From the NCBI GenBank assembly GCA_965221775.1, contig CBDCSU010000004.1, positions 1,116,011 through 1,180,010 on the forward strand: a stretch of DNA of 64,000 nt, written 5' to 3'. The DNA comes from Candidatus Latescibacterota bacterium. Lineage in GTDB: Bacteria > Latescibacterota > UBA2968 > UBA8231. Below are positions 1,717 through 63,800 of the stretch, one piece after another (within the stretch, counting starts at the first letter, position 1; each line of letters begins with the position of its first letter). A program made the position numbers and the translations under genes. The notes under the pieces were generated by a model. It was not told the DNA's origin and ran no database searches. It was given only the letters and a program-made list of their open reading frames with translations.

Positions 1717-2259
1717 TCACCCGGCGCCGTGCACATCCCGGACCTCGCCCCGCCGACGCGCCTCCAGGTGCCGGCGGATGCTCGTCAGCCGTTTCCCTCC
1801 CAACCCCTTCACCCCGTCCAGTCCGCCCGCCTCCAGCCGCCGTTCCAGGGCCTCGAGCCCGTCGATGCCCAGCTCCAGGAAGAGGGTGCGGGCCATCTTG
1901 GCGCCGAGACCGGGGATGTCGCGCAGCTCGAGGACCGACTCGGGCACCCGCCGCTTCCAGTCCTCCCACTTGCCGCAGGTCCCGGTGTCGACCAGCTCGG
2001 TGAGCAGCGCCTGGATGGTGGGACCCACGCTCGGCAGCTCCTTCAGCCGGCCCTCGTGCCTCAGCCTCTCCAGCGACTCGGGCCAGCGGCTGACGGTGTA
2101 CGACAGCCGCTTGTAGACCGTGGCGTGCGACTCCTCGTAGCCGCCGATGACGAGGTAGTCGGCCAGGCGTGAGAGCCGGTCGCCGATCCGCTCGTTCCGC
2201 TCCCAGCGGGTGCGCCCCTTGCCGTCGGTGCGCGAACGGTCCGACGCCTCGACGCTCAC
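1717..2259 (-). CDS. Stand-alone DNA polymerase X N-terminal (8-kDa/HhH fingers) domain protein
   Basis: NERIGDRLSRLADYL...LPSVGPTI...IPGLGAK...VKGLGGK HhH motifs; no palm or PHP domain; GTG start with GGAGG. Confidence 0.8.
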   Translation of the reverse strand: MSVEASDRSRTDGKGRTRWERNERIGDRLSRLADYLVIGGYEESHATVYKRLSYTVSRWPESLERLRHEGRLKELPSVGPTIQALLTELVDTGTCGKWEDWKRRVPESVLELRDIPGLGAKMARTLFLELGIDGLEALERRLEAGGLDGVKGLGGKRLTSIRRHLEARRRGEVRDVHGAG

Positions 2260-2345
2260 CGCCCTGCCTCCAGAAGCACCCGCCTGCCGGTCGTGTCCGC
2301 CATCGTCGTCACCGATTCGAGAAGATACGCACTGCGGGACGGGAC

Positions 2346-3767
2346 GTGATACCCGCACCCGGCTCCGGCCACCGGAGCGCGCCGGCCCTCCTGCTGTGGA
2401 CGGCGGCGGCGCTGATCACGGCCACCGAAGCCTGGTCCCAGGACGGGCTCCAGAACCGGGTGGCCAACACCAGCCTCCTCGTCGACCTGGCCGCCGGGCC
2501 GCCTCCCTCCACGATCTCCGCCACCGGCCTGTACAGCGACATCGAGTCCCGGACCCCGTCGCCGGGACTGGTCCCGTTCTCGGTCAACTCGCCCCTGTGG
2601 TCGGACGGGGCCCACAAGGTCCGCTACCTCGCCCTGCCGGGCCTGTCGCAGATCGAGTTCTCCCGCGGCGGCCCCTGGCGGTTCCCGCCCAACACGGTGC
2701 TGGTGAAGAGCTTCTACCTCGACATGGTGCGGGGCGACCCCTCGTCGCGGCGGATCATCGAGACGAGGCTGCTGATCCGGGCTGGCGACAGCGAGCGCTG
2801 GGAGGGCTTCAGCTACCGCTGGAACGAGGCCGGCACCGACGCCGAGCTGCTGATCCCGGGGGGCACCGCGCGCTACGAGATCGTCGATGCAGCGGCCCCC
2901 GGCGGCCGCGCCCACGTGGACTACCGCTTCCCCGCCTCGGAGGACTGCAGCCGCTGCCACACCGCCCAGGTGGGACAGGTGCTCGGCGTGAGGACCGCCC
3001 AGCTCAACGGCTTCCACGACTACGGCGGCGTCTCCGCCCACCAGCTGGAGACCTGGAACCGCCTCGGCCTGTTCACCGAGGACATCGGCGGTGGCTTCGA
3101 GGAGCTCCCGCGGTGGGAGGACCCCGCCGACGGCTCGGCCTCGCTGTCCGGGCGGGCGCGGTCCTACCTGGCGGCCAACTGCGCCAACTGCCATCGGCCC
3201 GGCGGCCTGCGGCGCACCGAGATCGACCTGCGCTACGAGACGGAACTGGAGGCCGCCGGCATCGTGGACGTTCCCCCCAACCTCGGCGTGGACGGCTTCG
3301 ACCGGCGCATCCTCTTGCCCGGCGACGGGGGGAACTCCGTCCTCGTCCTGCGCATGCTGGCCCTCGACGACCGGCGCATGCCGCCCCTGGCCTCGGGGGT
3401 CATCGACGAGGAAGGGGTGCGGATCGTCTCGCGCTGGATCGACGCTCTCGGCGAGCCGACGGCCGTCTCCGGCCCCCTGCCCTCCCCCAAGGCCCCGACC
3501 CTGCTGAGGGGTTGGCCCAACCCCTTCAACGCCTCCACCACGATCGCCTGGTCCCTGGCGCAGGGAGGGCGGGTCGACCTCGCCGTCCACGATGTCGCCG
3601 GCCGGCGGGTCCGCACCCTGGTCTCGTCCCGGCTCGCGGCGGGAGAGCACCAGGCCCGCTGGGACGGCCGCGACGACAGCGGCGCGCCGGCGGCCAGCGG
3701 CGTCTACCTGGCGCGCGTGCGGACGACGGCCGAAACGCGCACCTTCAAGCTGACCCTGCTTCGATGA
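2346..3767 (+). CDS. Secreted SO2930-like diheme c-type cytochrome with FlgD-Ig/T9SS-type C-terminal domain
   Basis: Signal peptide, VNSPLWSDGAHK, CSRCH and CANCH heme motifs, PNPFN...WDGRDDSG..ASGVY...KLTLLR; start approximate. Confidence 0.8.
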   Translation: MIPAPGSGHRSAPALLLWTAAALITATEAWSQDGLQNRVANTSLLVDLAAGPPPSTISATGLYSDIESRTPSPGLVPFSVNSPLWSDGAHKVRYLALPGLSQIEFSRGGPWRFPPNTVLVKSFYLDMVRGDPSSRRIIETRLLIRAGDSERWEGFSYRWNEAGTDAELLIPGGTARYEIVDAAAPGGRAHVDYRFPASEDCSRCHTAQVGQVLGVRTAQLNGFHDYGGVSAHQLETWNRLGLFTEDIGGGFEELPRWEDPADGSASLSGRARSYLAANCANCHRPGGLRRTEIDLRYETELEAAGIVDVPPNLGVDGFDRRILLPGDGGNSVLVLRMLALDDRRMPPLASGVIDEEGVRIVSRWIDALGEPTAVSGPLPSPKAPTLLRGWPNPFNASTTIAWSLAQGGRVDLAVHDVAGRRVRTLVSSRLAAGEHQARWDGRDDSGAPAASGVYLARVRTTAETRTFKLTLLR

Positions 3768-9472: not shown

Positions 9473-9515
9473 AGGAACGGAAGGCGCGCCTCGATACCGA
9501 CGTGCCGCGGTAGCC

Positions 9516-45289: not shown

Positions 45290-45373
45290 CGTTTCTTCCC
45301 GTCTCCTCATCGACTTGCTCGGCCGAATAGACTACGTCCTGCAACTCGCCGCACCGATCAACGGAGATTCCTG

Positions 45374-48505: not shown

Positions 48506-50473
48506 ATGTCCTCGACCACCGCCGCCGAGACCGCGAGCCAGCCGGTAACCCTCCGAGGGCTGCTGGTGGGGGCCGTCATGTGCGCGGTCATCGCCGTGGG
48601 CATCCCCTACGGCAGCATGGTGGTGCAGGGCACGCGCATGGGCCTCAGCTCGTGCACTCCTGCGGCGTTCTTCCTGCTCTTCGTGCTGCTCCTCACGGTG
48701 CAGGTCATGCTCGGGACCGTGCGCCGCACCTGGGCCCTGACCCGCGCCGAGCTGGTCACCGTCTTCATCATGATGGCCGTGGCCACCGCCATCCCCACCC
48801 GCGGGGTCACGGGCATGCTGCTGCCCATGATCACGGGGACCTTCTACTACGCCACGCCGGAGAACGACTGGGCGACCCTGATCCATCCGCTGCTCTCCGA
48901 CTGGATGGTGGTCTACAACCCGACGGCGGTGAAGGAGTTCTACGAGGGCAGCCGCAGCGGCACGGGGATCCCCCTGGACGTCTGGGCGCCGCCCCTGCTG
49001 CGCTGGTTCTCCTTCTTCGCCGGGTTCTGGCTCGTCCTCGTGTGCTCCATGGTCATCCTGCGGCGCCCGTGGGTCGAGCACGAGCGCCTCGTCTTCCCCC
49101 TGGCCCAGCTCTCCCTGGCCATGATCGAGGACCGCCGCGGCGACCGCGGCGAGATCCTCAAGCCGTTCTTCAAGTCCCCGGTCATGTGGTGCGGCCTCGC
49201 CATCCCGCTGATCCTGGGCAGCGTCAACGCCCTGAGCCACTACTTCCACTTCCTCTCGCCCATCAACCCCGCCGCCTCCGTGCCCCTCTTCCGCGACTCG
49301 GTGATCCTGCGGCTGCGGATCAACTACCTGATGTTCGGCTTCGCCTACTTCATCAACTCCGGCATCGCCTTCAGCCTGTGGTTCTTCTACCTCCTCAACA
49401 CCCTGCAGGAGGGCCTCTTCCGCATCGTCGGGATCCACAACGCCGAGGAGCTGGGGCCGTGGACCGGCTCCGGGCCGGTGGGGGCGATCATGGGCCACCA
49501 GATGATGGGCGCCCTCTTCGTGCTCGTGTTCTTCAGCCTGTGGACCGCCCGCGGCCACCTGAAGCAGGTGGCGCGCAAGGCCCTGGGCCGGGCCCCCGAG
49601 GTCGACGACAGCGGCGAGATCCTCTCCTACCGGGGCGCCCTCGGCGGGTTCGCCGCCGGCGTCCTCTTCATGGGCTACTGGCTGTGGAAGAGCGGCATCC
49701 CGCCGCACATCGTGCCCCTCTTCATCCTCTCGGCCCTGGTGATCCTCATCGGCCTGGCGCGGGTCATCGCCGAGGCGGGCATGCCCACGGTGACGCCGGA
49801 GATGGTGCCCGCCGGATTCGTGGTCTCGGGGGTGGGGGTCCCCGCCCTCGGCATGCAGGGCATGATCGCCACCGGGTACACCCTCGCCTGGATGGGAGAC
49901 CTGCTGGTCTTCATGACCGCGCCCCTGGCCAACGCCATGCGCCTCGGCTCCGAGGCCACGGCGAGGCGCCGCTGGCTGGCCGTGGCCATCGCCGTGGCCA
50001 TGGCCGTCGGCCTGGTCCTGTCGGCGTGGATGCTGCTGCACCTGGCCTACCGCGACGGCGCCCTCAACCTGCACCGGCAGTACTTCGGCGGCTTCGCCCA
50101 GTACCCCTCCAGCTTCGCCGCCAAGAAGCTGGCCACCCCCACCGGCCCGAACCTGATCGGCTGGCTGTGGACCGGCGGCGGCGGCGGCGTCATGGCCCTG
50201 CTCATGATGGCCCGCCACCGCTTCCCCTGGTGGCCCCTCCATCCCCTCGGCTTCGCGGTGAGCCCGGGCTGGGCCCTCAACAACATCTGGTTCTCCATCT
50301 TCCTCGCCTGGCTGATCAAGGTGGTGGTCCTCAAGTACGGGGGCCCGGGCCTGTACCGGTCGACGCGCCCCTTCTTCCTCGGCATCGTCCTCGGACAGTT
50401 CGTCGTCGGCGGACTGTGGCTGGTGATCGACGGCTTCACCGGGACCGTGGGCAACCGGATCCCGGTGTACTAA
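48506..50473 (+). CDS. DUF6785/DUF6784 polytopic membrane protein (putative transporter)
   Basis: LRRPW..ERLVFPL, RVIAEAG, WWPLHPLG, LKYGG; paralog of 32687..34849. Confidence 0.78.
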   Translation: MSSTTAAETASQPVTLRGLLVGAVMCAVIAVGIPYGSMVVQGTRMGLSSCTPAAFFLLFVLLLTVQVMLGTVRRTWALTRAELVTVFIMMAVATAIPTRGVTGMLLPMITGTFYYATPENDWATLIHPLLSDWMVVYNPTAVKEFYEGSRSGTGIPLDVWAPPLLRWFSFFAGFWLVLVCSMVILRRPWVEHERLVFPLAQLSLAMIEDRRGDRGEILKPFFKSPVMWCGLAIPLILGSVNALSHYFHFLSPINPAASVPLFRDSVILRLRINYLMFGFAYFINSGIAFSLWFFYLLNTLQEGLFRIVGIHNAEELGPWTGSGPVGAIMGHQMMGALFVLVFFSLWTARGHLKQVARKALGRAPEVDDSGEILSYRGALGGFAAGVLFMGYWLWKSGIPPHIVPLFILSALVILIGLARVIAEAGMPTVTPEMVPAGFVVSGVGVPALGMQGMIATGYTLAWMGDLLVFMTAPLANAMRLGSEATARRRWLAVAIAVAMAVGLVLSAWMLLHLAYRDGALNLHRQYFGGFAQYPSSFAAKKLATPTGPNLIGWLWTGGGGGVMALLMMARHRFPWWPLHPLGFAVSPGWALNNIWFSIFLAWLIKVVVLKYGGPGLYRSTRPFFLGIVLGQFVVGGLWLVIDGFTGTVGNRIPVY

Positions 50474-50487
50474 GGGCGGGAGTCCGC

Positions 50488-53400
50488 TCAGCGGGCGACG
50501 ACGAGGACGCCCGTCCGCCGGCTGTCGCCGCCGTCGACCCGGGCGCTGAAGAGGTAGGCGCCGTTGGCCAGGCCGGCCGGCGCCTCCCAGGGCAGGGCGT
50601 TGTACCCGGCCTCGCCGCTGGCCGTCACTTCCCCGACGAGGCGTCCCGCGAGGGTGTGCACGGTGATCCTCACCCGCCCCGCGGGAGCGCTGAGGGTATA
50701 GGAGAAGTGGCCCCCCTCGGCGGCCAGCGGGTTGGGATGGAACAGGAGGTCGGCCAGCTCCGCGTCGACCTCCTCCGAGACCCGCACCTCGAGCTCCCCC
50801 TCGGCCCAGTTGTTGCGCGCGTCCCAGGCCTCCAGGCGGATGCGGTGGCGCCCCGGCTCGAAGCCGGGCAGGTCGAAGCGGACCTCGCCCCGGCGGAAGT
50901 CGCCCACGGCGTGGTAGTCCCGGGTGACGTCGAGAACCGCGTCGTCGAGGTGCAGGCGGATGCCGTGGCCCACGTCGCCGGTGATGTTGACGCCGCTGGC
51001 GTCCCGCAGCGTCGCCCGCAGGGAGGCGTCGCCGCGCAGGACGTGGCCCTCCTCGAGGACGCGGCCGGCGTGCTCGAAGGCGATCGCCGGCCCCTCGTCG
51101 TCGTCGGAGGCCGCGGCCCCCGAGAGCCCGGTGAAGGCCAGCGGCCCGGCGGCTCCGTACGCCGAGACGCCCGGGCTCCAGGCGAGGGCGCTCGCCCGGC
51201 CGGCGAGGCCGCGGTAGGTGATGTCGCGGGGGACGAGGAAGTCCACGGCGAAGCGGCCCGAGGCGACGGGGAAGATCCCGCGGAAGAGCGGGTTCCCCGG
51301 GCGCTGGTACTCCAGGGTGAGGCCCTGCTCCACGCGGCGCCGCAGCGAGCTGGAGTCGAAGACCTGGAGGCGGACCCGGCCGTCGAAGGAGGGGACCTCC
51401 TCCCCCCCGCGGGTGATCCGCCCCACGAGGCGGGCCATCTCCAGGGCGCGCAGGGTGTCGGCCACCTCCAGCTCGACCCGCAGGCGCGGCAGCGCCAGGC
51501 GCGTCGCCGGATCTCCGAAGAGGCTGAAGCGGCGCGTGTTGTTGCGGTTCTGCACCGACACCAGCTTGGCCTCGAGCAGGGCCTGCCCCACGGGGACGCC
51601 CTCGCGGCCGCTGGTGAGCAGCCTCGCGTGGAAGTGCCGGGCCAGTTCCATGTTGCTGGGGTGGAACCCGACGCGGGTGGCGGCGATCATCGCCACCACG
51701 CCGCCCTCGCGCCGCTTCAGGAGGGCCTCCGGGATCGAGTCGCGGTTGGGATCGTCGAAGATGCCGAGCTGGCTGGCGGCGCCGTAGACCAGGGGCAGTC
51801 GGCGCCCGTTGTTCAGCTCCTGCAGGTCCTGGCTGAGGCGGAATATGACCTCGTGGGACAGGACCTGGGAGTTGCCGTGCCCCACCCAGGTGAGCAGCAG
51901 CGAACCCCGGGAGAAGCTCTCGAGGAAGTCCTCCCGGGCGCGCGGCTTGAAGCGGCCCTCCAGGGGGTAGTCGACGAGGTAGAGCTTCTCCACGTCGAGG
52001 TCCGGCGGCAGTTCGGCCGCCAGCTTCTCGGCGTCGATGACGAAGTCCCCCTCCACCCGCTCGGGCTTGTCCGCGTGGTAGGTGTCGTCTGCGGCCAGCA
52101 GCATGCGGCTGCGCCAGGGGCCCTGCTCCGGCTCGCGGTCGTAGGCGATGAGCTTGTCCACCACGGCGGCGGCCTCCTCGGTGGAGCGCACCGGGATCCG
52201 TCCCACGGCCATGTCCGGCAGGTCGTCGGCGCCGGAGACGCGCACGTACCACTCGTCGTAGGTGCTCTCCTCCTCCTCGTAGGGGGGGACCCAGTTGCCG
52301 ACCCCCGTCCCCAGGTTGTCGCGGTAGTCGAAGTTGCCGTCGCCGAGGAGGAGGACGAAGGCCGGGGAAGGCCGTCCCTCCTCGAAGGCGTGGTGGAGGA
52401 AGTTGCGCAGCGCCGACGGGTCGAGGAGCCCGCCGGAGAAGGCGTCGTAGATCTCGTCGGTGAGGACCACCTCGGTGGAGAAAGGCGGGCCGTGGCGGTC
52501 GTCGGCGGCGCGCCAGGCCGCCAGCCGGGCCGCCTCCGCCTCGAGGTCGGGGTGGGTGAGGACGAGGTAGTCGGCTCCCGGGAACCTGTCGAGGAGCCGA
52601 TGAGGCTGGCGCTCCTCGATCCTCGGGGGGCGGCGGATCCCCGCGGGCCCGGCCACGGCGTACCGGGCCCCGGGGGCGGCGCTGTCGGCGAAGGTCACGC
52701 GGCCCTCGGCCGGGGAGTGCTCCAGCCCCGCCACCTCGCGCAGGCCGCCGTCCTCCACGGCGAAGACGCGGGGGGCCTCCTCGAAACCCGTGGCGCGGTA
52801 GGCGGCGGCCCCCGGCCGGGCCGGCAGGAACAGCTGCCCCGCCTCGGCGTGGGGGCGGCGCTCGTACTCCACCTCGAACCAGTCGATCAGCACCCGCCAC
52901 CCCCGGAGGTGACGGACGCGGAGCTCGTTGATCCCCTCCACCGCCCCCGTGGTCCGCACCTCGGAGACGAAGGGACCGTCCTCGCCGGCCCTCGCCTCAC
53001 CGGCTCGACGCCCGTTCCAGTAGATGCGCAGGGACTCGCCGGCCTTCGTCTGCGAGATGCCCCCGAGGCGTATGAGGACCGGCGTCTCCCCGGCGGGCGA
53101 CCGCAGCACGGCGGAGAAGGTCTCCTCGTCGCCGGCCGACATCCTCAGCCAGTACCACTCGGTGCCGCTGGCGATCCTCTCCGGCGTGGTGTGGGTCGGG
53201 AAGTGCTCGCCCTCGAGGCGGAGCCGCTCGGTGAAGCGGTCGACGGCCTCGGCCGCCGCCGCCGGAGGCGGGCGAGGCTCCCGGCGCAGGGCGCGCCCGG
53301 GATCGGCGGCGGCGAGCCAGTACACGTTCTCGCCGGTGAAGGGGTTGTGCAGCCAGCGGCTGTCGTCCCCCTCCCCCTCCCAGCGGGAGGAGGCCTCGCC

Positions 53401-54168
53401 GTAGAACAGCAGCTGGTCCTCCGCGTCGAAGGTGCCGTCTCCCCCGTCGTCGACGATCACCGCCACCGGCTCGAGGGGGTGGGGCCCCCGGAGGTCGTCC
53501 GCGGCGAGGGGGCGGCCGCCGCCGTAGAGCAGGGCCAGGCCGGAGCTGGCCGCGCCCCGGGCCCCCGGCAGGTCGGCGCCGGTGAGGCGGTAGAGCCCGG
53601 TGCTGCGGATTGTGATCTTGTACACGGGCCCGGCCGCGGCGGGTCCGGCGGGCCTCAGAGCCTGCCGCGGCCGGCGCGGCAGCCGCCACCGGCGGGCCTG
53701 CTCGTGGTTGAGTACGGTGCCGGCGTAGAGGGCCTCGTCCGTCCCCGGGGAGGAGGGCCGCCCCGGGCCGCGGGGCTCGGCGAAGCGGACCTCGGCCACG
53801 ACCCGGCCCAGCGGCTGCGGCCCCTGGCGTCCGGAGAACCGGATGCGGGCCACGCGCTGGCGGCGGAAGCGGCCCACCTCGAGCAGCTCCGCCGCCGGCG
53901 GCGGCGGCAGCCACACCTCCGGCTCCGGCCCGGACCCTTCGCCGCAGACGATCCCCGCCGGCCCCTCCTCGAGAGTCAGCAGGTGCAGGGTGGGCTCCGC
54001 CCCCGGAGGCAGGCCGACGAGCACGCTCTCCGAGGCGGCGCAGGGCCGCGTGACGCGGTGCTCCAGGCGCAGCGAAGAGTCGTCGAGGCCCAGCATCCGC
54101 ACGTCGCCCGCGGTCGCCGCCGCCGCGGCCAGCAGCAGAAAGGGGAGCCTCCGGCCGGGCTCAGTCAT
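50488..54168 (-). CDS. porU: Type IX secretion sortase PorU-like (peptidase C25)
   Basis: EIYDAFSGG..DP.ALRNF, LLLGDG.FDY, VGRIP, ADD, WVGHG, LFGDPA, DDEGPAI, DASGVN..G.VGH, AWDARNN, C-terminal PNP domain. Confidence 0.85.
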   Translation of the reverse strand: MTEPGRRLPFLLLAAAAATAGDVRMLGLDDSSLRLEHRVTRPCAASESVLVGLPPGAEPTLHLLTLEEGPAGIVCGEGSGPEPEVWLPPPPAAELLEVGRFRRQRVARIRFSGRQGPQPLGRVVAEVRFAEPRGPGRPSSPGTDEALYAGTVLNHEQARRWRLPRRPRQALRPAGPAAAGPVYKITIRSTGLYRLTGADLPGARGAASSGLALLYGGGRPLAADDLRGPHPLEPVAVIVDDGGDGTFDAEDQLLFYGEASSRWEGEGDDSRWLHNPFTGENVYWLAAADPGRALRREPRPPPAAAAEAVDRFTERLRLEGEHFPTHTTPERIASGTEWYWLRMSAGDEETFSAVLRSPAGETPVLIRLGGISQTKAGESLRIYWNGRRAGEARAGEDGPFVSEVRTTGAVEGINELRVRHLRGWRVLIDWFEVEYERRPHAEAGQLFLPARPGAAAYRATGFEEAPRVFAVEDGGLREVAGLEHSPAEGRVTFADSAAPGARYAVAGPAGIRRPPRIEERQPHRLLDRFPGADYLVLTHPDLEAEAARLAAWRAADDRHGPPFSTEVVLTDEIYDAFSGGLLDPSALRNFLHHAFEEGRPSPAFVLLLGDGNFDYRDNLGTGVGNWVPPYEEEESTYDEWYVRVSGADDLPDMAVGRIPVRSTEEAAAVVDKLIAYDREPEQGPWRSRMLLAADDTYHADKPERVEGDFVIDAEKLAAELPPDLDVEKLYLVDYPLEGRFKPRAREDFLESFSRGSLLLTWVGHGNSQVLSHEVIFRLSQDLQELNNGRRLPLVYGAASQLGIFDDPNRDSIPEALLKRREGGVVAMIAATRVGFHPSNMELARHFHARLLTSGREGVPVGQALLEAKLVSVQNRNNTRRFSLFGDPATRLALPRLRVELEVADTLRALEMARLVGRITRGGEEVPSFDGRVRLQVFDSSSLRRRVEQGLTLEYQRPGNPLFRGIFPVASGRFAVDFLVPRDITYRGLAGRASALAWSPGVSAYGAAGPLAFTGLSGAAASDDDEGPAIAFEHAGRVLEEGHVLRGDASLRATLRDASGVNITGDVGHGIRLHLDDAVLDVTRDYHAVGDFRRGEVRFDLPGFEPGRHRIRLEAWDARNNWAEGELEVRVSEEVDAELADLLFHPNPLAAEGGHFSYTLSAPAGRVRITVHTLAGRLVGEVTASGEAGYNALPWEAPAGLANGAYLFSARVDGGDSRRTGVLVVAR

Positions 54169-56389
54169 CGCGGATCACCGCCAGCTTCCCCCGCGCCCTC
54201 GCCGCGGCGCCGCCCAGGCCGAGGGTGTAGTAGTAGACCCCCGAGGCGACGGCGGAGCCGCCGTCGTTCCTCCCGTCCCAGAGGACCGCCCCCCCGAGGT
54301 CGGTCTCCAGGGTGCGCACCAGGCTCCCGGCGGCGGAGAACAGGCGGACCCGGGCGCCCGGCGGCAGGCCCTCGAAGGTGACCCGGGCGCCGGCCCCGGA
54401 GACGAAGGGATTGGGGTAGATCCGCACCCCCTCGTCCAGCTCTCCCTGCCCGGCGGCCACGCGCAGCCCGCCGAGGCCCCCGCGGGTGCCGATCCACAGC
54501 TGGCCGCTGGTCTCGTCGAAGCGCAGGGCCAGCACGTGGTCGTCCACCAGGCAGCTGTTTTCGGCGGTGTACGTCTCCACGAGGCGGCCGGAGTCGTGGA
54601 GCTGGGTCAGCCCCCCCTCGGTACCGACCCAGACCGACCCGCGGCCGTCGAGCTCGATGTCGGTGATCACCGGGGAGGCGAGGCCGTGGTCGCGCCGGTA
54701 GGCCCGCCAGCTGACGATCTCGAACTCCCTCGACTCCCGGTCGTACCGGTAGCGGGCCCGGAACAGGCCCTCGGGCGTGCCGATGTAGAGGACCTCGCCG
54801 GTGGCGGCCAGGGTCCTGACCTCGTCGCTGGTCATGCGCGGCTCGGTGCCGGAATCGAGGGAGATGACGTGATCGTCCCCCGGGTCGAAGGGGGTGCCGC
54901 CGTCGTCGAAGAGGAGGACGCCGTCGAGGACGGCGGCCATCAGCAGCAGCCCCTGGCCGTCGGCGACGACCTCGTTCAGCTCGCGGCCCCGGGTCAGCCC
55001 GAGGCTCTCTAGATCGTGGAGGTGGCTGGCGCCGGTGCCCGGGTCGAAGACGGCGAGCCCGGCCTGCAGGTTGAGGGCCCACACCCGGCCGCCGCCATCG
55101 ACGGTCAGGTCGTTCACCACGACGAAGCTGGAGGAAGCGACGACCCCCCGGAGAGCGGAGTTCGTCTGGTCCAGCCGCCGCCAGCCGCCGCCCGGGCCCC
55201 GGACCCCGATCCCCTGGCCCCAGGTCCCCGCCCACACGCCGCCGTCGGCGGTGACCTCCACGGCCACGGCCACGTCCGAGGGCAGGCCGGAGCCGACTCC
55301 GTGGACCCTCCAGCCCACGGCGGTCATGTGCGCCACCCCGATGGGGCTCCCCTCGCGGTCGTTGGGCACCACCGCCGCCCACAGCTCTCCGTCCGGGGTC
55401 GCGGCCAGGTCGTGGAAGCTGGTGGCCGGGGGATCCCCGGCGTCGGGAAGGGGAGGGCCTCCGAGGGAGCGGAGCCCGCCCCTCGTGCCCACCCAGGTCT
55501 CGCCCTCCCCCCTGGCGATGGCCAGCGGCTCCGCCGGCGCGGAGCCCACCACCGTCCACTCTCCGGGGCCGCGGCGCTCGTAGACGATGCCGCGGGTGGC
55601 CGCCAGGAGCGCACCGCCGCCGCCGCCGAGCACGCGCACGCCGACCGGGGCGGCCTCCGGTTTCCACCCTCCCTCCTCCAGGCGCCACGGCCCCGTCTCG
55701 CCCAGGGCCAGCAGGGCGCCCCCGGCGGAGACCAGGGCTGCCACCGCCCCGGGCCTGTCCTCGGTGAGCCAGGAGTCCGGGTTCTGCAGGTTCTCCGCCG
55801 CCAGGTCGGCCCAGGCCACGCCCTCGGGGGTGCCGGCCACCAGCATTCCCGAGTGCTCCACGAGGGCGGTGACCCCCGTGTTGCGGGGGAAGTCGCCCAG
55901 TTGCCAGTAGTTCTCCTGCACCCGCAGGACCTCGGTGAGGAGGACGCTGATGCCGGCGTCGCTGCCCACGTACATCCTGTCCCGCACGTGCAGGAGGGCC
56001 CTCACGCCGAGGTCGGCGAACGTCGTCAGGAGCGGGTCGAAGCGCGAGCCGGCCCTCCGGTAGCGGCCGATGCCGCCGAAGTCGGAACCGAACCACAGAT
56101 CTGCCGCCGCGTCCGCGGCGATGGAGGTGATGCGGCCCTCGGGCAGGCCCTGCAGGCGGGTGAGGCGGGCGTACTCGCCGGTCCTCCGGTCGAAGTGCAG
56201 CACCCCTCCGTCGGTGGCCGCCCACACGCCGCCGGACTCGGAGAGGAGGGCGTTCACCGGCCGCATCCGGGTCAGGGCGGACCAGTTCCCGCACCCCGCC
56301 TGCGCGTCGGCCGGGCCCGCCAGGGGGAGGAGACCGGCGAGGACGGCCGGGGACAGGCTTCTCAGGATGTGCTGGCTCTTGAGAGACAC
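54161..56389 (-). CDS. porZ: PorZ-like double beta-propeller protein with C-terminal sorting domain
   Basis: Signal peptide, WAATDGG, repeated W.GT..G propeller blades, YPNPF...WDGRN..VASGVY...GKLAVIR; adjacent to porU. Confidence 0.75.
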   Translation of the reverse strand: MSLKSQHILRSLSPAVLAGLLPLAGPADAQAGCGNWSALTRMRPVNALLSESGGVWAATDGGVLHFDRRTGEYARLTRLQGLPEGRITSIAADAAADLWFGSDFGGIGRYRRAGSRFDPLLTTFADLGVRALLHVRDRMYVGSDAGISVLLTEVLRVQENYWQLGDFPRNTGVTALVEHSGMLVAGTPEGVAWADLAAENLQNPDSWLTEDRPGAVAALVSAGGALLALGETGPWRLEEGGWKPEAAPVGVRVLGGGGGALLAATRGIVYERRGPGEWTVVGSAPAEPLAIARGEGETWVGTRGGLRSLGGPPLPDAGDPPATSFHDLAATPDGELWAAVVPNDREGSPIGVAHMTAVGWRVHGVGSGLPSDVAVAVEVTADGGVWAGTWGQGIGVRGPGGGWRRLDQTNSALRGVVASSSFVVVNDLTVDGGGRVWALNLQAGLAVFDPGTGASHLHDLESLGLTRGRELNEVVADGQGLLLMAAVLDGVLLFDDGGTPFDPGDDHVISLDSGTEPRMTSDEVRTLAATGEVLYIGTPEGLFRARYRYDRESREFEIVSWRAYRRDHGLASPVITDIELDGRGSVWVGTEGGLTQLHDSGRLVETYTAENSCLVDDHVLALRFDETSGQLWIGTRGGLGGLRVAAGQGELDEGVRIYPNPFVSGAGARVTFEGLPPGARVRLFSAAGSLVRTLETDLGGAVLWDGRNDGGSAVASGVYYYTLGLGGAAARARGKLAVIRDD

Positions 56390-56395
56390 CCCACG

Positions 56396-57340
56396 TCAGC
56401 GGAAGACGGCCTGGATCATGGCGCGGATGTAGCCGATCGCGTAGGCGGTGCCCGCCCACCCGGCGCCCGCGGAGGCGATGCCGGGAGTGTGGTCGAGCAT
56501 GAAGGGGCCGTCGAAGCCGATCTCCCGGTAGGTCCGCATGGCCAGGTACATGTCCATGTCGCCCTCGTCGACGAAGACCTCCTGGAAGTTCCCGAGGCCG
56601 CCGCGGATGTTGCGGAAGTGGACGGTGCCGATCTTGCCGAGGCGGCCGATGCGGCGGATGGCGGCGGGGATCTCCTCGCCCATCTCGGCGACGCAGCCCT
56701 GGCAGAAGAGCATGGCATTCGCCTCGCTGGGGGCCAGGCCGAAGAGGCTCTCGAAGTCATCGAGGGTGGACAGGACCCGGGCGGCTCCCCCGAGGGGCTC
56801 GGCGATGGGCGGGTCGTCGGGATGCGCGGTGAGCAGCACGCCGCTCTCCTCGGCGGCCGGGACGATGCGCTCGACGAAGGTGGCCAGGTTCCGGCGCAGG
56901 CGCTCCTCGGAGATGCGCAGCTGCGGATGGTCCTGCGGGTTGGCCCGGAACTCGTCTTGGTCGAAGGTGCTGTAGCGCGCGCCCCCCCGGCCGATGGTCG
57001 GCTCGGTGCGGAAGTTGCCGATGCCCCGGAAGTTGTAGCCCAGGGTGGGGATCCCAGCGGCGCCGAGGTTGCGGATCATCGTGCACCAGCCCTCGATGCC
57101 CTCGTCGCGGCCGTCGCGGCCGTGGATGATCGTGCGCTCCGGCCGCAGGCCGACGTTGTGGAGCTTCATGCCGTGGGCCTCGACCTTGCGGCAGGCGTCC
57201 TTCCACAGTTCGGTGCGGTCCTCGCCGGCCCGCGGAGGCGGCGGGTGCATGATCGCCACGTAGTCCACGCCGATCGCCTTCAGGGTCCCGAGGGTGTCGT
57301 CGGTGAGGTCGTCGAGCGTCAGGTGGTGTTGCACCGTCAT
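56396..57340 (-). CDS. uxuA: Mannonate dehydratase
   Basis: GIPTLGYNF, HPDDPP, FCQG, VHFRN, FVDEGDMD, DHTP, YAIGYI. Confidence 0.88.
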   Translation of the reverse strand: MTVQHHLTLDDLTDDTLGTLKAIGVDYVAIMHPPPPRAGEDRTELWKDACRKVEAHGMKLHNVGLRPERTIIHGRDGRDEGIEGWCTMIRNLGAAGIPTLGYNFRGIGNFRTEPTIGRGGARYSTFDQDEFRANPQDHPQLRISEERLRRNLATFVERIVPAAEESGVLLTAHPDDPPIAEPLGGAARVLSTLDDFESLFGLAPSEANAMLFCQGCVAEMGEEIPAAIRRIGRLGKIGTVHFRNIRGGLGNFQEVFVDEGDMDMYLAMRTYREIGFDGPFMLDHTPGIASAGAGWAGTAYAIGYIRAMIQAVFR

Positions 57341-57492
57341 CGCATCGCTCCGGATAGCCGTGAGGGGCGGGCGGCCGGATAAACGGGCCTGACCGCGAGG
57401 TGGTCAAGATCGGATCGGTTGACGGAGTCTCGAGGACGGAGCGAGATTCGCCGGTTGTCCCCGGCGCGCCCGGTCCGCGAAAGGAGTCCGCC

Positions 57493-59886
57493 ATGACCAT
57501 CCCTCGCCCACTCTGGAGGACGGCCGCCCCCGGCCTCGCCCTGCTGCTCCTAGGCCTGCCGGCGCCGGAAGGCCTGCGCGGCGAGGAGGACTACCCGCCC
57601 GGCACGTTTCAGCTGACGCCCACGGTGGACCTCGGGTTGCAGCCCGTTTCCGTCCACGTGCCGGATCGCTTCAGCGGCATCCCCCGCGACCTCGTCCTCA
57701 ACCTGCCCCCCGGCTTCTCCGCCTCCGTCTTCGCGGCGTACGGCTTCACGCAGCCGCGCTTCATGGCGGTGAGCCCCGAGGGCGTTCTCCACGTGGCCGA
57801 CATGAGGGCCAAGACGATCGTCGCCCTGCCCGACGCCGACGGCGACGGCGTCGCCGACGAGGCGATCGTCGCCGCCCGCGGGTTCACGCGCGCCCACAGC
57901 CTGGCCTTCTACGAGGGGGCGATGTACGTGGCCGATACGAACCGCATCGTGCGTCTCACCGACGCTGACGGCGACGGCGTCTACGAGGAGCGGGAGAACC
58001 TCGTGCGCTCCCTGCCCGAAGGGGGGTGGCACTCGACGCGCACCATCGTCTTCGACGAGGAGAACGACCGGTTCTACGTGGGCGTCGGCTGGCCCTGCGA
58101 CATGTGCCGGCACCCCGATCCCGAGCGCGGGACGGTGCTGCGCTTCAACGCCGACGGCAGCGGCCGCCGGGTCTTCGCCAGCGGCATCCGCAACCCCATC
58201 GGCATGGCCCTGCACCCGGTGACCAACCAGCTGTGGGCGACCAACAACGGCCACGATACCGAGGGCGCCAGCCTGCCGCCGGAGTGGATCGACATCATCC
58301 GCGACGGCGGCTTCTACGGCACCCCCCTGGCCTACGGCTACCAGGTCTACGTCGACTTCGACCTGCCCCGGTACCGCGAGAACCTGCCGCTCTCGCCCGA
58401 GGACTCGACCCTGGTGCAGAGCATGGTGCGCCCCGCCGCCCTGATCCCCGCCCACCTGGCGCCCATGGGCCTGCACTTCTACACCGGCGACCAGTTCCCG
58501 GCCCGCTACCAGGGAGCCGCCTTCGTCGCCATCCACGCCGGGCACGCCAAGCTGGCGCCGGTCCCCGGGTACAGCGTCGTCGCCCTCTTCAGCGAGCCCG
58601 ACGGGTCCGACGCCCGCATCGCCGACTTCGCCACCGGCTTCCAGACCGGCACCGAGGTCTCCGACGTGTGGGGGTTTCCGGTGGGGATCGTCAGCGACGA
58701 GGCGGGCAACCTCTACGTCTCCAGCGACCGCCACGTGCGCGCCATCCTGAGGATCACCCACGGGCCCGTCGCCGCCTCCTGGGAGCACACCTTCCCCGGC
58801 TCGATCGTGAACGGCGCCACCCTGGCGGTGGAGGCCGGCGTCCGTGTGGAGCGGCTGGCCCCCGGCGGGGAGAGCCCCGCGGTCACCGCCGATCTCAGCG
58901 CCCTCGGAGGCGCCTCGCGGGTGCCCCTGGAAGAGGTGGGAGAGCGCACCTGGCGCCTGCGGACCTCGCTCCCGGTGGACGCGCCGCCGGGGCTGAAGAC
59001 GGTATCCGTCCTCGTCGAGCAGCGCGCCGGCTCCGAGACCCACGCCACGCGGTTGACGGCCACGGTGATGGTGGAGCCCGCCGAGGTGGTCCCCGATCTG
59101 GTGATCTACGACGACAGCCTGGCCGATGGCTGGTCGGTCTTCAACGGCACCTGGCTCGACGACTTCTCCTTCGACCTGGCCGACGAGGAGGAGGTCTTCC
59201 GGGGCCGGCGGTCCGCCACCTTCCCCGTGCGCTGGGACGACTGGGACTGGGTGGTGAAGTTCCTCCCCGACGAACCCCTGGACCCGGCGGGCTACGGCCG
59301 CCTGCGCTTCGCCTTCCATCCGGGCCTCTCGGTGGTCCAGGGCCCCCCGCGCTTCACCGTCTACCTGGCCGAGACGACGATCGACCTGGCGGCGGAGGGA
59401 CGGGTGGAGACCGAACCCGCGCGCCCCGGCCGCCATCGCTTCGGCGACGACCGCTGGCAGGTGGTGGAGGTGCCCCTCGCCGCCTTCGGCCCGCCCAAGG
59501 AGATCCGTGAGGTGACGTTCTCGGGCAACTTCGGGGGCCGCTTCTTCATCGACGACCTGCGGCTCACGGGAGCGGTGCCGACCGCCGTGGGAGAGGTGGA
59601 GGCGGTGCCTTCCGCCTTCGCCCTGGAGCAGAACCACCCCAACCCCTTCAACAGCTCCACGCGCATCGGCTTCAGCCTGCCCGGCGGCGCGGCGCGGCTC
59701 ACCATCTACAACCTGCTGGGCCAGAAGGTCGCCACGCTCCTGGAAGGCGACAGCCCCGCCGGGGCCCGCTCCATCCTCTGGGAGGGCCGCGGCGACGGCG
59801 GCCGCGAGCTGGCCACCGGGGTCTACCTCTACCGGCTGGAAGCGGCGGGACAGGTGCAGACGCGGAGGCTGGTGCTCCTGCGCTGA
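57493..59886 (+). CDS. Secreted PQQ/L-sorbosone dehydrogenase-like propeller plus CBM-like domain and T9SS-type C-terminal domain
   Basis: LPPGFS, GGWHSTRTI, GIRNPIG, AHLAPMGLHFY, IYDDSLADGW, PNPFN...WEGRG..LATGVY...RLVLLR. Confidence 0.85.
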   Translation: MTIPRPLWRTAAPGLALLLLGLPAPEGLRGEEDYPPGTFQLTPTVDLGLQPVSVHVPDRFSGIPRDLVLNLPPGFSASVFAAYGFTQPRFMAVSPEGVLHVADMRAKTIVALPDADGDGVADEAIVAARGFTRAHSLAFYEGAMYVADTNRIVRLTDADGDGVYEERENLVRSLPEGGWHSTRTIVFDEENDRFYVGVGWPCDMCRHPDPERGTVLRFNADGSGRRVFASGIRNPIGMALHPVTNQLWATNNGHDTEGASLPPEWIDIIRDGGFYGTPLAYGYQVYVDFDLPRYRENLPLSPEDSTLVQSMVRPAALIPAHLAPMGLHFYTGDQFPARYQGAAFVAIHAGHAKLAPVPGYSVVALFSEPDGSDARIADFATGFQTGTEVSDVWGFPVGIVSDEAGNLYVSSDRHVRAILRITHGPVAASWEHTFPGSIVNGATLAVEAGVRVERLAPGGESPAVTADLSALGGASRVPLEEVGERTWRLRTSLPVDAPPGLKTVSVLVEQRAGSETHATRLTATVMVEPAEVVPDLVIYDDSLADGWSVFNGTWLDDFSFDLADEEEVFRGRRSATFPVRWDDWDWVVKFLPDEPLDPAGYGRLRFAFHPGLSVVQGPPRFTVYLAETTIDLAAEGRVETEPARPGRHRFGDDRWQVVEVPLAAFGPPKEIREVTFSGNFGGRFFIDDLRLTGAVPTAVGEVEAVPSAFALEQNHPNPFNSSTRIGFSLPGGAARLTIYNLLGQKVATLLEGDSPAGARSILWEGRGDGGRELATGVYLYRLEAAGQVQTRRLVLLR

Positions 59887-59898: not shown

Positions 59899-60876
59899 TC
59901 AGCGCTCCCGCAGCACCAGGTGGAGCTGCCGGGCGATGGTCCCCGTCGTCATGGCGTGGACCACGGCGTTGATGCCCAGGCGCAGGTGGGCCTCGTTGCC
60001 GAAGGGCTGGGCCCAGAAGTGGACGTAGCCCTTGTCGGCGAAGAGGCCGGCGAGGCGCCCCTCGAGAAAGACCCCTTCCAGGTAGTGCCGCGGCCAGGCC
60101 TCCTCCCAGCCGGGAGGGGGGCCGTTGAAGTCGTAGAAGCAGCTGTAGACCGGGTGGCCGTCCGGGATGCGCCGCAGCCGCCCGCGGTGGCCGAGGGCCT
60201 CCTGGAAGAGGCCGCGCAGGGCCGCCTCGGCCTGGCTGAACTCCAGGCCGGGCCTGGCGTTGTCGGCGAAGACGAAGCCGCCGCCGCGCAGGTACTCCGC
60301 GAGGGCCCGGGTCTCGCTGTCGGTGAGGTCGAAGACCTCGTCGGCGGTGATGTAGACGAAGGGGCTGCGCATGAACTGCGGCGAGCCGATGAAGATGTGG
60401 CGGTCCACGGCGGCGGCGATGCCGGTCTGCTCCGTGAGGGCGTCGGCGAGATTGGGGATGGCCAGGGCGGCGCTGTCGAAGCGCGGCCGCAGGCCGGTCC
60501 CCCAGGCGGTGGCCAGACGGATGAAGCCCCGCAGGTCCCGGCGGCCTTCGCCGGTGCGCGCGATCAGCCCCCGGTAGCGCCCGGAGTGGAGGCTGGCGCC
60601 GCGGAACAGCTCGCCGAGCCAGGTCTCGTCCTCCTTCCCGGAGTGCAGGACGTAGAGGGTGTCCCCCGGGACCAGGGGACTGGCGGCCCGGTCCAGGCTG
60701 GCGCAGGGAGAGGAGAGGCTGCAGTCCGAGTCGTCCGAGCCGCCCCGGGCCAGGTACCCCGACTCCGGGTGCGCCTTGGGAGGGAGGGCGGCGCCGGCCG
60801 CCAGCAGGGCGAGGACGGGGATCCGTAGGCGCGTCGGGGTCGGTCGGGTTCCAGGGGCCATGGGCGGATCGATCAC
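59899..60876 (-). CDS. DUF4159 domain-containing exported protein
   Basis: PFVYIT, LAEYLRGGGFVFAD, IPDGHPVY, LGINAVVHAMT; GTGA coupling; signal-like N-terminus. Confidence 0.75.
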   Translation of the reverse strand: MIDPPMAPGTRPTPTRLRIPVLALLAAGAALPPKAHPESGYLARGGSDDSDCSLSSPCASLDRAASPLVPGDTLYVLHSGKEDETWLGELFRGASLHSGRYRGLIARTGEGRRDLRGFIRLATAWGTGLRPRFDSAALAIPNLADALTEQTGIAAAVDRHIFIGSPQFMRSPFVYITADEVFDLTDSETRALAEYLRGGGFVFADNARPGLEFSQAEAALRGLFQEALGHRGRLRRIPDGHPVYSCFYDFNGPPPGWEEAWPRHYLEGVFLEGRLAGLFADKGYVHFWAQPFGNEAHLRLGINAVVHAMTTGTIARQLHLVLRER

Positions 60877-63800
60877 TTTCTCCGGGCCGCCGCCAGGGCG
60901 CGGGAGGCGTACATCATCTCGCGCACGGCGGCCAGGACGTGCTGGGTGGCGTGGGCGATCCCCCAGCGCAGGGGATCCTCGCGTTCGGGGTCGCGGCGCC
61001 GGGCGCCGGCGGCGTAGCTGTCGAAGACGGGCACCATGGCGTCGGCGTACTTCGGGTCTCCCGTATCCTCGTACAGGGCCGCCAGGGCGTCGAGGTGGTG
61101 GAAGGCGCGGTCCTCCCCGGCGGCGCCGGTGCGCTCGATCCAGAGCCGCCGGACCTCGTCGTTGATCCGCCCGTACCAGAGGGCCATGCGGGCCCCGTGG
61201 CCGCCGGCGTACCAGCGGTTGCGGTCGGTCCGGGCGTGGGTGCTCCAGAGGCGATCGGCCTCCTGCCGCCAGACCTCCTCCCCGGTCTCCAGGTACATCC
61301 GCGCGAGCCCGGCGATCGGGTTGGAGAGGTAGCGCCAGCCGTAGTCGTGGAAGGCGGCGCCGGGGTGGGCCATGGCCCGCGCCATGCGCCGGCCCGCCTC
61401 CCAGGCCGGCAGGTAGCCGGTGACGCGGTACATCTCCAGGAAGGGGTCGACCATCGAGTGGCCGGAGTCGCCGGGGGAGAGCCAGATGCACTCGTGGTGG
61501 CGGCGGCTGAGGCCGCTCGCGGCGGGGTCCCGCGGATCGTGGCGGATGGTGCCCACCTCCAGCAGGTGGCGGGTGTGGGCCGAGGCCAGCTCGAGCCAGC
61601 GGCGGTCGCCGGAGCGCAGGAAGGCGAGCCACGGGACGTGGGCGATGTTCTGCTCGTTCAGCAGGTGACCGTAGCGCCCATGGTTCTCCCAGCGCCCCTG
61701 GCGGGCCACGTAGGCCGCCGGCAGCGAGCCCCAGACCCACTGGCCGTACCAGCGGTAGACGCGCTGGTTGAGCCGCCAGCTCTCCAGCGCCTCCTCCACC
61801 AGGGCCTCGAGATCGGGGCAGACCTCCGGGTCGTAGGGCTGCAGGTGCATGAGCGCCCCGGTGGCCGTCAGGTACCGCGGCGGCACGGCGCAGACCACGG
61901 GCTCGCCGAAGATGCGCTCGTACAGGGGCAGCTCGAACCACGCGGCGGGGTCGATGATGAACTCGTGGGTGCGCGAGACCCCGGCCGCCAGGGCCCAGGT
62001 GGGAGCGCTGCTTGATGTCAGCATGCCGTCCTCCCGCGGGCGCCAGTCCATCGCCCCCCGGTCCTCCGGCCAGTAGTGGAAGGTCACCGTGCCCTCCTCC
62101 ACGGAGGCCTCGATGCGCTTGGGGAAGAGGCGCCAGAAGTCGCGGTGATGGATGATCAGATCGCGCTCCTTGCGGCGCATCCTCACGGTGCCGGTGGAGC
62201 GCGAGCCCTGCCGGCTCAGCCGCGACGTCGCCGCCTCGGCGTGCTCGTCGTCGAGCTGCCGGACCACCACCAGGCTGTCGCTGGAGACCTCCTCGCCGTC
62301 GAGGTCGACGGCGGCCTCCTTCCAGAAGGGGCCCTCCGGGCGGAAGCGGATGCCGGCGCCGCCGAGGGTGTCCTCCCACGGATCCCCCGTGTAGGTCCAG
62401 GTGTGGTACAGGCGGAAGAACGGACTGCCGCGGTAGAACTCGGCGTCCAGCTCCCCGCGCGCCACCGGGTCCCCTTCCCCCTTCGCGGGGTGGTACCAGC
62501 CGGTGATCCGGACGCGGCAGCGGAGGGGCCCGTTCTCCACGATGCGAACCCCGGCCTCCGGACCGGCGACGAGGAACCGGTAGAGGCGCCCCTCCCCGGT
62601 CTTCCACCACAGGTCCCCGGGCTGCAGCAGGCCCTCGATGGTGCCGTCGGCCCCGAAGACCCAGACGCGGGTGCCCACGTCGACGGCGACGCCGTCCCCC
62701 CGGCGTCCGGCCATGGCCGGCCCCGGCCCGGGGTCGTCGGACCGGTCCAGGGTCAGGAAGCCGTTGCCGCCGCCGACGACATCGCTCTGGAAGTCGACGA
62801 GGAGCCAGCGGACGCTGCCGTCGGGCCACGTGCCCGTGACCTTCGTCTGCGTGTCGAGCCGCCGTCCGAGGGCGTCGCTGAGGGTGATCCCGGCGCCCGG
62901 CGGGAACGCTCCCGGGGCGAAGGGGACCCCCACCCGCATGGGCCAGTCGACGCGGGTCAGCCCGGCCGCTTCCTCGACGCCGATGGGCACCCGGCCGCCG
63001 CCGGGCAGCTCCACCTGGCGCAGGGCGGTGACGAAGGGGCGCTCCCTCTCGGCGAAGGACCCCGCCGAGCGCCGGGCCTCCGCGGCGCGGCCGCGGGCGC
63101 GGCCGGCGAGGACGCGTTCCTCCGCGTAGGAGTGGAGGGCTTCCTCCTCTCCCAGATCGACGTCGAGCCGGAAGGTGTAGCGGCCGTCCTCCAGCTCTCC
63201 GAGGTCGAGTTCCACGCGGCGGTCGAGGGTGCGGGTCTCCATGGGGTTCAGGTCGTACTTCCAGGCCTCCCGGAGCGCGGTCCGGCCGAGGACGTCCGTC
63301 ACCGTCAGCCGGAAGCGGACCGGCGTGCGGTCGTAGCAGCTGTCGTAGAGGCGCGCGTAGTGGCGCATGCGCAGCGGGATCGACTGGATCCCGGGGACCG
63401 CCATGAGGGCGTCGGCGATGCCGGCGTCGGCCAGACCGAAGCGGTCGCGGCGCAGGTTGTTGAAGTAGAACCTGCTCTGCGCGGCGGCGCTGCGGCCCTC
63501 GTTGGGCCAGGGCACCATCGTGTGCCCGGCGATGACGGCGGCGTTGTCGCGCACCAGCCGCGCGAAGCGCTGCGCCGCGGAGCGCTCCTCCGGCTTGACG
63601 AAACCCGGGTGGAGGCGGTCCCCCGGGGCGAAGGGCTGGTAGGTGAGGTGCATCTCCACCCTCTCGCCGGGCGCCAGCAGTTCCTTCTTGCGCCGCGGCT
63701 CCACCGTGAACCACCCCCGCTTCGGGTGCTTCTCGCGGCGGTAGTCGGTCCAGGTGGCGCAGACCTGCGCGTCCCCCCGGCGGAAGGTCATCCACACGCC

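Follow-up and report, generated by a model that had tools for sequence, protein, structure and literature searches.

To our knowledge, PorU is the only known Gram-negative 'sortase'. Its catalytic domain is gingipain-like and belongs to clan CD, whose members (caspases, separase, legumain, gingipains and glycosylphosphatidylinositol (GPI) transamidase) are textbook cysteine enzymes, and we know of no characterised member of this clan with a serine nucleophile. In the C-terminal signal peptidase/sortase PorU of Porphyromonas gingivalis (PG0026; structure 6za2), a component of the attachment complex in the T9SS (type IX secretion system), the catalytic cysteine is described as C690 and the C690A mutant as inactive (PMC5121618; PMC5562754), and PorZ and PorV are named as the partners of PorU in this complex (PMC5562754). 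Gorasia et al. described a PorU-specific arginine, R722, which the gingipains lack, and proposed that the thioester of the cysteine enzyme is resolved either by water or by the amine of a glycolipid (PMC4560394). Here we analyse a PorU-family gene in a stretch of 64,000 nucleotides from a Candidatus Latescibacterota bacterium (contig CBDCSU010000004.1, positions 1,116,011 to 1,180,010), which is called the window throughout. The protein carries a serine at the position of the catalytic cysteine, as do nearly all members of the clade to which it belongs. The gene and the residues on which the argument depends are the following:

50488..54168, minus strand: PorU-family gene (P0001), 1226 codons plus stop, an uninterrupted open reading frame (ORF) of 1226 amino acids
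51496..52569, minus strand: Peptidase_C25 domain (gingipain-like, clan CD), residues 534-891; Pfam PF01364, 263.8 bits
52084..52089, minus strand: Asp694-Asp695 pair at the end of the strand preceding the His strand, candidate acidic partner of His764
51877..51879, minus strand: His764 (CAC), catalytic His of the GHG motif, within WVGHG; aligned to PorU 6za2 and RgpB
51772..51774, minus strand: Ser799 (AGC) at the nucleophile position, inside a conserved A-A-S-Q segment; phmmer alignments
51673..51675, minus strand: Arg832, the PorU-specific conserved Arg (P. gingivalis R722); Arg paired with Arg in the phmmer alignment
51628..51669, minus strand: Gly834, His836 and His847, just past Arg832 and specific to the Ser clade; residue conservation

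The NCBIfam equivalog-domain model T9SS_sortase PorU (NF033707) matches the protein with 541.9 bits (cutoff 420), residues 178-1212 corresponding to model positions 3-1078 of 1095, and a phmmer search of PDB sequences aligns residues 652-1212 to P. gingivalis PorU 6za2 with an E of 4.2e-51. Ser799 is paired in this alignment with the Cys at chain index 688 of 6za2, which is C690 in the numbering of the papers; this Cys lies 33 residues past the GHG His, in agreement with the published C690/H657 spacing. Ser799 is also paired with the catalytic Cys of RgpB (1cvr, 4ief) and His764 with the GHG His of both 6za2 and RgpB, while Arg832 lies 33 residues past Ser799, R722 of P. gingivalis being located ~32 residues past the nucleophile. 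The central claim of the initial annotation, namely that a serine encoded by AGC occupies the nucleophile position and that the His motif WVGHG is retained, was thereby confirmed. The Bacteroidota motif which it gave for comparison was right in the position of the aligned Cys and inaccurate in the exact letters, which differ in detail from the P. gingivalis segment.

The window protein shares with P. gingivalis PorU the equivalog domain above cutoff, the GHG His, the conserved Arg, the gingipain-like C25 fold and the association with PorZ- or PorV-family genes. It differs in having Ser799 in place of C690, within A-A-S-Q as opposed to T-A-T-C-D of P. gingivalis, and in the residues G834, H836, H847, F709 and T760, which are added in its clade. 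Moreover, the gene stands in an operon with a PorZ-like gene, has been duplicated into porZ-linked and porV-linked paralogs, and its host does not belong to the Bacteroidota. Judged by hidden Markov model score, architecture, His, Arg and gene neighbours, the protein is a PorU orthologue that lacks the chemical hallmark of a cysteine peptidase: of the His-Cys dyad of MEROPS C25 and clan CD the His is there and the Cys is replaced by Ser, which makes the protein a homologue but by definition no cysteine peptidase. In view of Ser799, which stands in the aligned position of the catalytic Cys that defines PorU as a cysteine peptidase, we class it as a Ser variant within the PorU family instead of an ordinary member. 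In our favoured reading, to which we assign a probability of roughly 0.55, the gene would encode a serine-nucleophile PorU of the T9SS attachment complex in a bacterium of the FCB (Fibrobacteres, Chlorobi, Bacteroidetes) group.

Another Cys at the nucleophile position, which the initial annotation had considered as a finding that could overturn its claim, is not present. A cysteine elsewhere in the domain was likewise rejected as the nucleophile, as the C25 domain of the window protein contains no Cys at all and the only two cysteines of the whole protein, C43 and C75, are both located outside of it. The comparison was extended to 241 aligned homologues of at least 900 amino acids (122 Ser-type and 119 Cys-type; the set is biased towards the Ser clade by the way it was collected). 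Of the Ser-type sequences, 90 of 122 are free of Cys in the aligned C25 columns, and nowhere along the protein does a column reach 20% Cys among them. One could argue that the enzyme is active with a different nucleophile or arrangement, in which His836 or His847 is recruited or the chemistry is water-based and Ser799 plays a supporting role only. Such an arrangement would be in line with the clade-specific G834, H836 and H847 near the conserved Arg and with the loss of residues typical of Cys-type PorUs (H709 changed to F and N760 to T). We consider it improbable, given that no Cys is available in the domain and that Ser799 is invariant save for reversions to Cys, which marks this position as the critical one.

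The AlphaFold2 model of residues 500-900, built on a 70-row alignment, has a mean pLDDT (predicted local distance difference test) of 92.4, and the modelled C25 domain has a gingipain-like fold. Its best Foldseek matches in the PDB are RgpB 1cvr (E 7.5e-20, TMq 0.69), Kgp (6i9a/4rbm) and PorU 6za2 (E 4.5e-8). His764 and Ser799 are each located just past a beta-strand (model strands 259-263 and 294-298). The gingipains RgpB and Kgp (MEROPS C25, clan CD) are thus the best structural matches, with aligned His and nucleophile positions, but they are only 16-20% identical to the window PorU and are secreted cargo proteases with a Cys nucleophile, whereas the window protein has Ser and the domain architecture of PorU. 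The strand that bears the Asp694-Asp695 pair at its end comprises model residues 189-194, and in the phmmer alignment the pair falls within 1-4 residues of the strand-end Glu of RgpB, which we take to be the third catalytic residue of that enzyme. It is possible that Asp694 or Asp695 polarises His764.

The serine is not restricted to the window. We took a census of the 120 nearest protein clusters at 90% identity, using the C25 region as the query: 118 clusters have Ser and 2 have Cys, and the His is present in all 120. The named sources of the nearest clusters are PorU proteins from metagenome-assembled genomes (MAGs) of Latescibacteria or Gemmatimonadetes, and the public annotation of near relatives reads plainly 'sortase PorU' or 'C25 family cysteine peptidase'. 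A scan of species-representative genomes gave 378 matches, of which the best 80 correspond to 64 distinct loci; 62 of the loci cover the site (L019 and L064 do not). Ser is encoded in 60 of these 62, by AGC in 31 and by AGT in 29 and never by TCN, and Cys in the other two (TGC in L047, TGT in L063); all 62 have the catalytic His. The four closest loci, with 79-94% protein identity, all read AGC. Since both synonymous codons AGC and AGT are in use, Ser appears to have been selected as an amino acid over a long time, and on this comparative evidence the swap is a trait of the whole clade and no private mutation. Conservation of Ser in related genomes, which the initial annotation had proposed to check, was therefore found, and TGC in close relatives, which it had named as contrary evidence, is absent from the four closest loci and was encountered only in distant members of the clade.

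These data also bear on the most trivial explanation, a one-base sequencing or assembly error or an incipient pseudogene. AGC is indeed one base away from TGC. However, AGY is found in 60 of 62 independently assembled loci, the four close ones included; the ORF of 1226 codons is intact and its G+C content at third codon positions (0.96) is that of other real genes of the window; and the C25 domain is strongly conserved. Error and decay were rejected on the recurrence of AGY and the C25 conservation, and we regard them as practically inconceivable. Simple decay had already been argued against in the initial annotation, and rightly so.

When residues 520-1226 were compared with 1.84 billion representatives at 50% identity, the best 150 of 14,759 matches comprised 14 Ser-type sequences (each at least 43% identical to the query), 135 Cys-type sequences and one without the region; with the best 150 examined, independent Ser variants could exist elsewhere in the PorU family. 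A look-up in the ESM Atlas gave only generic PorU/C25 clusters, mostly without recorded taxa. The titles of the 64 genomic loci name Latescibacterota in 34 cases, Gemmatimonadota, -etes or -aceae in 23, 'uncultured bacterium' in 4 and other labels in 3. The supposed non-Bacteroidota lineage is thus supported by 57 of the 64 titles; Latescibacterota and Gemmatimonadota labels are interleaved on the tree, and both phyla are within the FCB group. The titles conflict at the phylum level: 'Gemmatimonadaceae' and 'Latescibacterota' are both found among the loci L001, L002 and L003, which are 91-94% identical to the window protein, and single odd titles (Gemmatimonas phototrophica, Planctomycetota, Handelsmanbacteria) are found among L018, L040 and L022. 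As the titles of near-identical loci disagree, we treat MAG taxon labels as unreliable for placing the Ser clade.

Two trees were constructed, both with FastTree, with local support only and no inferred root. The first comprises 139 rows, from sequences of at least 900 amino acids, and was built without the nucleophile columns. It unites all 20 Ser rows in a single clade of 23 rows (local support 100%) and requires three or more Ser/Cys changes. The second has 80 rows (the window gene, 22 database proteins and the 57 loci whose PorU ORF reaches 1000 amino acids or more) and contains a 62-row clade (100%) made up of three parts. The window gene falls in the porZ-linked subclade, whose 11 rows are Ser throughout. 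The porV-linked subclade counts 48 rows, of which 45 are Ser and 3 Cys (P0091, and L047 with its identical P0121), and at the base stand three further rows, P0127 (Ser), P0128 (Cys) and P0129 (Ser). The nearest outgroups, P0130, L063/P0131, P0133 and P0134, are Cys-type, and L063 is titled Latescibacterota. Rooting on distant Cys-type PorUs would make a single change from Cys to Ser, with two or three later reversions, the simplest history, and the Ser change predates the split into the porZ-linked and the porV-linked paralogs.

The revertants have some side changes in common. P0091 has Thr again at position 798, P0121 (identical to L047) and P0128 have Cys in place of the Arg880 of the clade, and both revertants of the porV-linked subclade have Ala for Val/Ile four residues past the nucleophile. 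Otherwise the natural Cys revertants mostly retain the clade-specific residues, and for that reason we consider these residues to be features of the clade and no strict partners of Ser. Genomes close to that of the window carry both kinds of loci, all of them Ser: OZ252098.1 has L004 and L050, COS4_bin_9 has L003 and L056. The MAG NP952 has as many as three Ser copies (L006, L016, L055). One MAG has mixed copies (L024 with Ser, L047 with Cys), and it is the sole genome with a Cys-PorU alongside a Ser-PorU among the loci retrieved. The swap across the clade, the relatives with two to three nearly all-Ser PorU paralogs, including those in porU-porV operons, and the few regains of Cys all go beyond what the initial annotation had contained.

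In the 241 homologues and the 62 loci the site is either Ser or Cys; Thr, Asn and Gly, each one base away from AGY, were never found in either set. His764 is present in 241 of 241 homologues and D695 in all of both types (122/122 and 119/119). D694 is missing from one Ser-type sequence (121 of 122) and from no Cys-type sequence (119 of 119), and Arg832 is present in 122 of 122 and 111 of 119, respectively. H764, D695, H772, E773, D781, F804, D805 and R832 are invariant in the 122 Ser-type sequences. Among pairs in which the rest of the protein is 30-35% identical, the identity of the C25 domain averages 0.558 for Ser-type (44 pairs) against 0.389 for Cys-type (641 pairs); where the rest is 35-40% identical, the values are 0.573 (399 pairs) and 0.426 (238 pairs). 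Once the sets had been thinned to below 70% identity, the 52 Ser-type sequences shared 47 invariant C25 columns out of 358 and the 119 Cys-type sequences 12 out of 358, a comparison that is indicative only, because the Cys set is deeper. By these measures the C25 domain is under no relaxed constraint; Ser-type PorUs conserve it better than Cys-type PorUs do.

The swap goes along with further near-invariant residues that are specific to the clade. A798 is found in 100% of the Ser-type sequences, where Cys-type PorUs have T/S, and Q800 in 97%; G834 is found in 100% (V/T/A in Cys-type), H836 in 94% (A/S in Cys-type) and H847 in 85% (Y/F in Cys-type). F709 is present in 98% of Ser-type sequences, while 85% of Cys-type have His, and T760 in 89%, while 87% of Cys-type have Asn. 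Of these, A798, Q800, G834 and H836, which flank the nucleophile and Arg832, would fit a re-tuned active site.

The putative T9SS context of the gene comprises the following features:

54161..56389, minus strand: PorZ-like gene, 742 amino acids, with propeller repeats and an Ig-like C-terminal domain, directly upstream of porU; Pfam Reg_prop, weak FlgD_ig
54161..54168, minus strand: stop codon of porZ and start codon of porU share 8 nt (ATGACTGA), read from the sequence; putative translational coupling
50533..50712, minus strand: C-terminal Ig-like domain of the PorU-family protein; Pfam FlgD_ig, 19.1 bits with a cutoff of 27 (weak match)
57400..59886, plus strand: candidate T9SS cargo, heme-binding / glucose-sorbosone-dehydrogenase-like, with a type A sorting domain; TIGR04183 Por_Secre_tail, 31.2 bits (cutoff 23), residues 747-825; Pfam GSDH and FlgD_ig
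2169..3767, plus strand: second candidate T9SS cargo, diheme cytochrome c of the SO2930 family whose C-terminal domain is Ig-like; TIGR03806 at 241.7 bits (below cutoff); FlgD_ig, 42.4 bits (cutoff 27), residues 468-520

The best PDB match of the upstream protein is 5m11, P. gingivalis PorZ/PG93 (E 1.1e-21, residues 374-721). The NCBIfam model T9SS_PorZ (NF052228) gives 131.7 bits and covers the C-terminal half only (residues 375-724); as this is under the cutoff of 260, we call the protein PorZ-like. The claim that an intact porU is coupled to porZ thus stood, with 1226 codons, an overlap of 8 nt and a PorZ-like partner. The C-terminus of the window PorU can be aligned by phmmer with that of P. 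gingivalis PorU up to residue 1212, and its Ig-like domain is probably a retained T9SS C-terminal domain, as the weak FlgD_ig match suggests. T9SS core genes (SprA/Sov, PorK/L/M/N) were not found among the ORFs of the 64-kb window that were scanned (29 by NCBIfam, 27 by Pfam).

Across the 62 loci, a PorZ homologue lies directly upstream of porU in 10, and a PorV-family gene (NF033709, 227-286 bits) lies 12-269 nt downstream of a Ser-type PorU on the same strand in 44. In 8 loci neither neighbour is found, and in 5 of these the contig breaks off on one side. With the NCBIfam PorU model, the porV-linked Ser paralogs L030, L050 and L056 reach 557-629 bits. Together, the candidate cargo in the window and the PorV-family gene in 44 of the 62 loci form a system context that speaks for a working PorU.

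The porV-linked genes belong to a conserved operon (L009-L063; for example L030:9764-20629, L022:8390-20791 and L009:9923-20915) which consists, in this order, of PorU, the PorV-family gene, an M6-like gene and a TolB-like propeller gene (~1000 amino acids). The M6-like gene matches the NCBIfam family 'T9SS-dependent M6-like inactivated metalloprotease' with 244-336 bits, the cutoff being 600. A gene for a DegT/PseC-type sugar aminotransferase is situated divergently just upstream of the porV-linked Ser-PorU in L024:8047-9381(-), L050:8279-9754(-) and L056:8181-9428(-), and such an amino-sugar pathway beside the sortase would fit an amine-bearing glycan as the acceptor.

From this material we infer catalysis by Ser799, a triad and an acceptor for the reaction, as follows. 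In an ancestor of this PorU clade a one-base change would have turned the nucleophile codon from TGY (Cys) to AGY (Ser). In the window, porU would be co-translated with its PorZ-like partner. Ser799, activated by His764 and possibly backed by Asp694/Asp695, would attack the bond that precedes the C-terminal sorting domain of the cargo, and an ester acyl-enzyme would be formed instead of a thioester. The acyl-enzyme would then be resolved by water, which releases the cargo, or by the amine of a surface glycolipid, which attaches it, similarly to what was proposed for Cys-type PorU.

There is a different way to read the same residues, in which PorU is non-catalytic: a pseudo-enzyme that docks on PorV/PorZ and binds cargo sorting domains, acting as a receptor or scaffold, while the cargo is held non-covalently or trimmed by another protease. 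Several points weigh in its favour and against a catalytic serine. Caspases, separase and other clan CD proteases are routinely inactivated by a Cys-to-Ser exchange, and an entry in our Foldseek list, 9hm7, is by its PDB title such a mutant of separase (C2029S). A bare Cys-to-Ser change would therefore be likely to disable the enzyme if nothing compensates for it. Ser and Cys are also nearly isosteric, so that switching between them could be near-neutral for a binding site and the Ser/Cys-only pattern could reflect a binding role. That dead protease folds are tolerated in this system is indicated by the 'inactivated' M6-like family, whose genes share operons with the porV-linked Ser-PorUs. Finally, the cyanobacterial pseudo-orthocaspases, clan CD homologues in which Tyr-Ser replaces His-Cys, are described as presumably inactive (PMC6426788), and in them a conserved Ser at the nucleophile position coexists with presumed inactivity. 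They share with the Ser-PorUs a natural and conserved Cys-to-Ser change at the clan CD nucleophile in a bacterial lineage; they differ in that the His has been replaced too, whereas Ser-PorUs keep an invariant His in an otherwise invariant pocket.

This integrity of the pocket is one reason why a scaffold role is the weaker explanation, one we keep as a tentative possibility. Across paralogs which are ~40% identical overall, the His, D695, E773, D781, D805 and R832 do not vary in any of the 122 Ser-type sequences; the catalytic domain is more tightly constrained than in Cys-type PorUs; and only nucleophilic residues are found at the site. Furthermore, all retrieved paralogs are Ser in several genomes, which on this reading would be left without a PorU-type signal peptidase. 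A working Ser nucleophile is the best explanation, in our opinion, because the His is invariant, the site admits nucleophilic residues only, the constraint is tighter, the flanks are re-tuned and there is no Cys-type back-up in most genomes. A site limited to Ser and Cys, with Cys reappearing two or three times within the Ser clade, is what would be expected if the side chain has to be a nucleophile. The chymotrypsin-like clan PA, in which both Cys and Ser nucleophiles occur on one fold next to His, is a precedent for either nucleophile on one fold, although that fold differs from that of PorU. The initial annotation had left the choice between a Ser nucleophile and a non-catalytic scaffold open; the comparative evidence favours the working Ser, and the 'different chemistry' that it derived from the swap would be a deduction and no result. 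The broader statement, that a whole FCB lineage runs T9SS attachment with a Ser-nucleophile clan CD enzyme, which would be the first natural Ser-His member with ester intermediates and with nucleophiles interchangeable through Cys switches, has in our estimation an even chance of being true.

The remaining genes of the window, which has a G+C content of ~72%, describe the surroundings of the porZ-porU pair. A promoter and terminator scan of 50000-57600 returned no sites and is uninformative at such a G+C content. Two paralogs with DUF6785 and DUF6784, large proteins of unassigned function, are encoded at 32687-34849(+) and 48506-50473(+) with 347 and 402 bits; the latter gene is convergent with porU, with 14 nt between the ends, and both are located amid genes of sugar-acid and inositol catabolism. 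A protein of 1026 amino acids encoded at 60873-63953(-) has all three PcRGLX-like (rhamnogalacturonan lyase) domains, and the window further contains an oligogalacturonate-lyase-like ORF (37323-38729), BNR/sialidase-like ORFs and UxuA-like genes. This gene content suggests that a region for pectin and uronate utilisation surrounds the porZ-porU pair. Two islands have a lower G+C content. The first, at 8480-11320 (0.64 against ~0.72), encodes a HicB-family antitoxin-like ORF, a DUF4276 protein and an AAA_21/AAA_15 ATPase and looks like a small defence or mobile insert; the second, at 42562-45330 (0.60), encodes an AAA_15/AAA_21/AAA_23 ATPase and an ORF with a weak PLD-like nuclease match and is possibly another defence-type insert.

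In the full-text literature we found no paper that joins Latescibacter with T9SS or 'type IX secretion', and none on a non-Cys PorU in a search that did not include the PorU structure paper PMC8501833 and Figure S9 of PMC4560394. C690A was the only variant of C690 encountered, and searches for T9SS, Gemmatimonad and PorU together returned papers in which the phylum is merely mentioned.

A conserved and selected Ser with the His and the pocket intact may be a natural experiment showing that the clan CD fold is workable with serine. If Ser799 is catalytic, the clan CD fold would have its first serine enzyme known to us, which would be useful for the understanding of protease mechanism, for the engineering of oxidation-resistant transpeptidases and for the annotation rules by which such proteins are at present labelled either 'cysteine peptidase' or 'non-peptidase homologue'. 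The co-changed residues A798, Q800, G834, H836, H847, F709 and T760, together with the natural Cys revertants, would serve as a ready mutational map. If Ser799 is non-catalytic, a whole bacterial group would have kept the T9SS attachment complex and given up its covalent chemistry. Either answer would alter the prediction of T9SS cargo processing outside the Bacteroidota.

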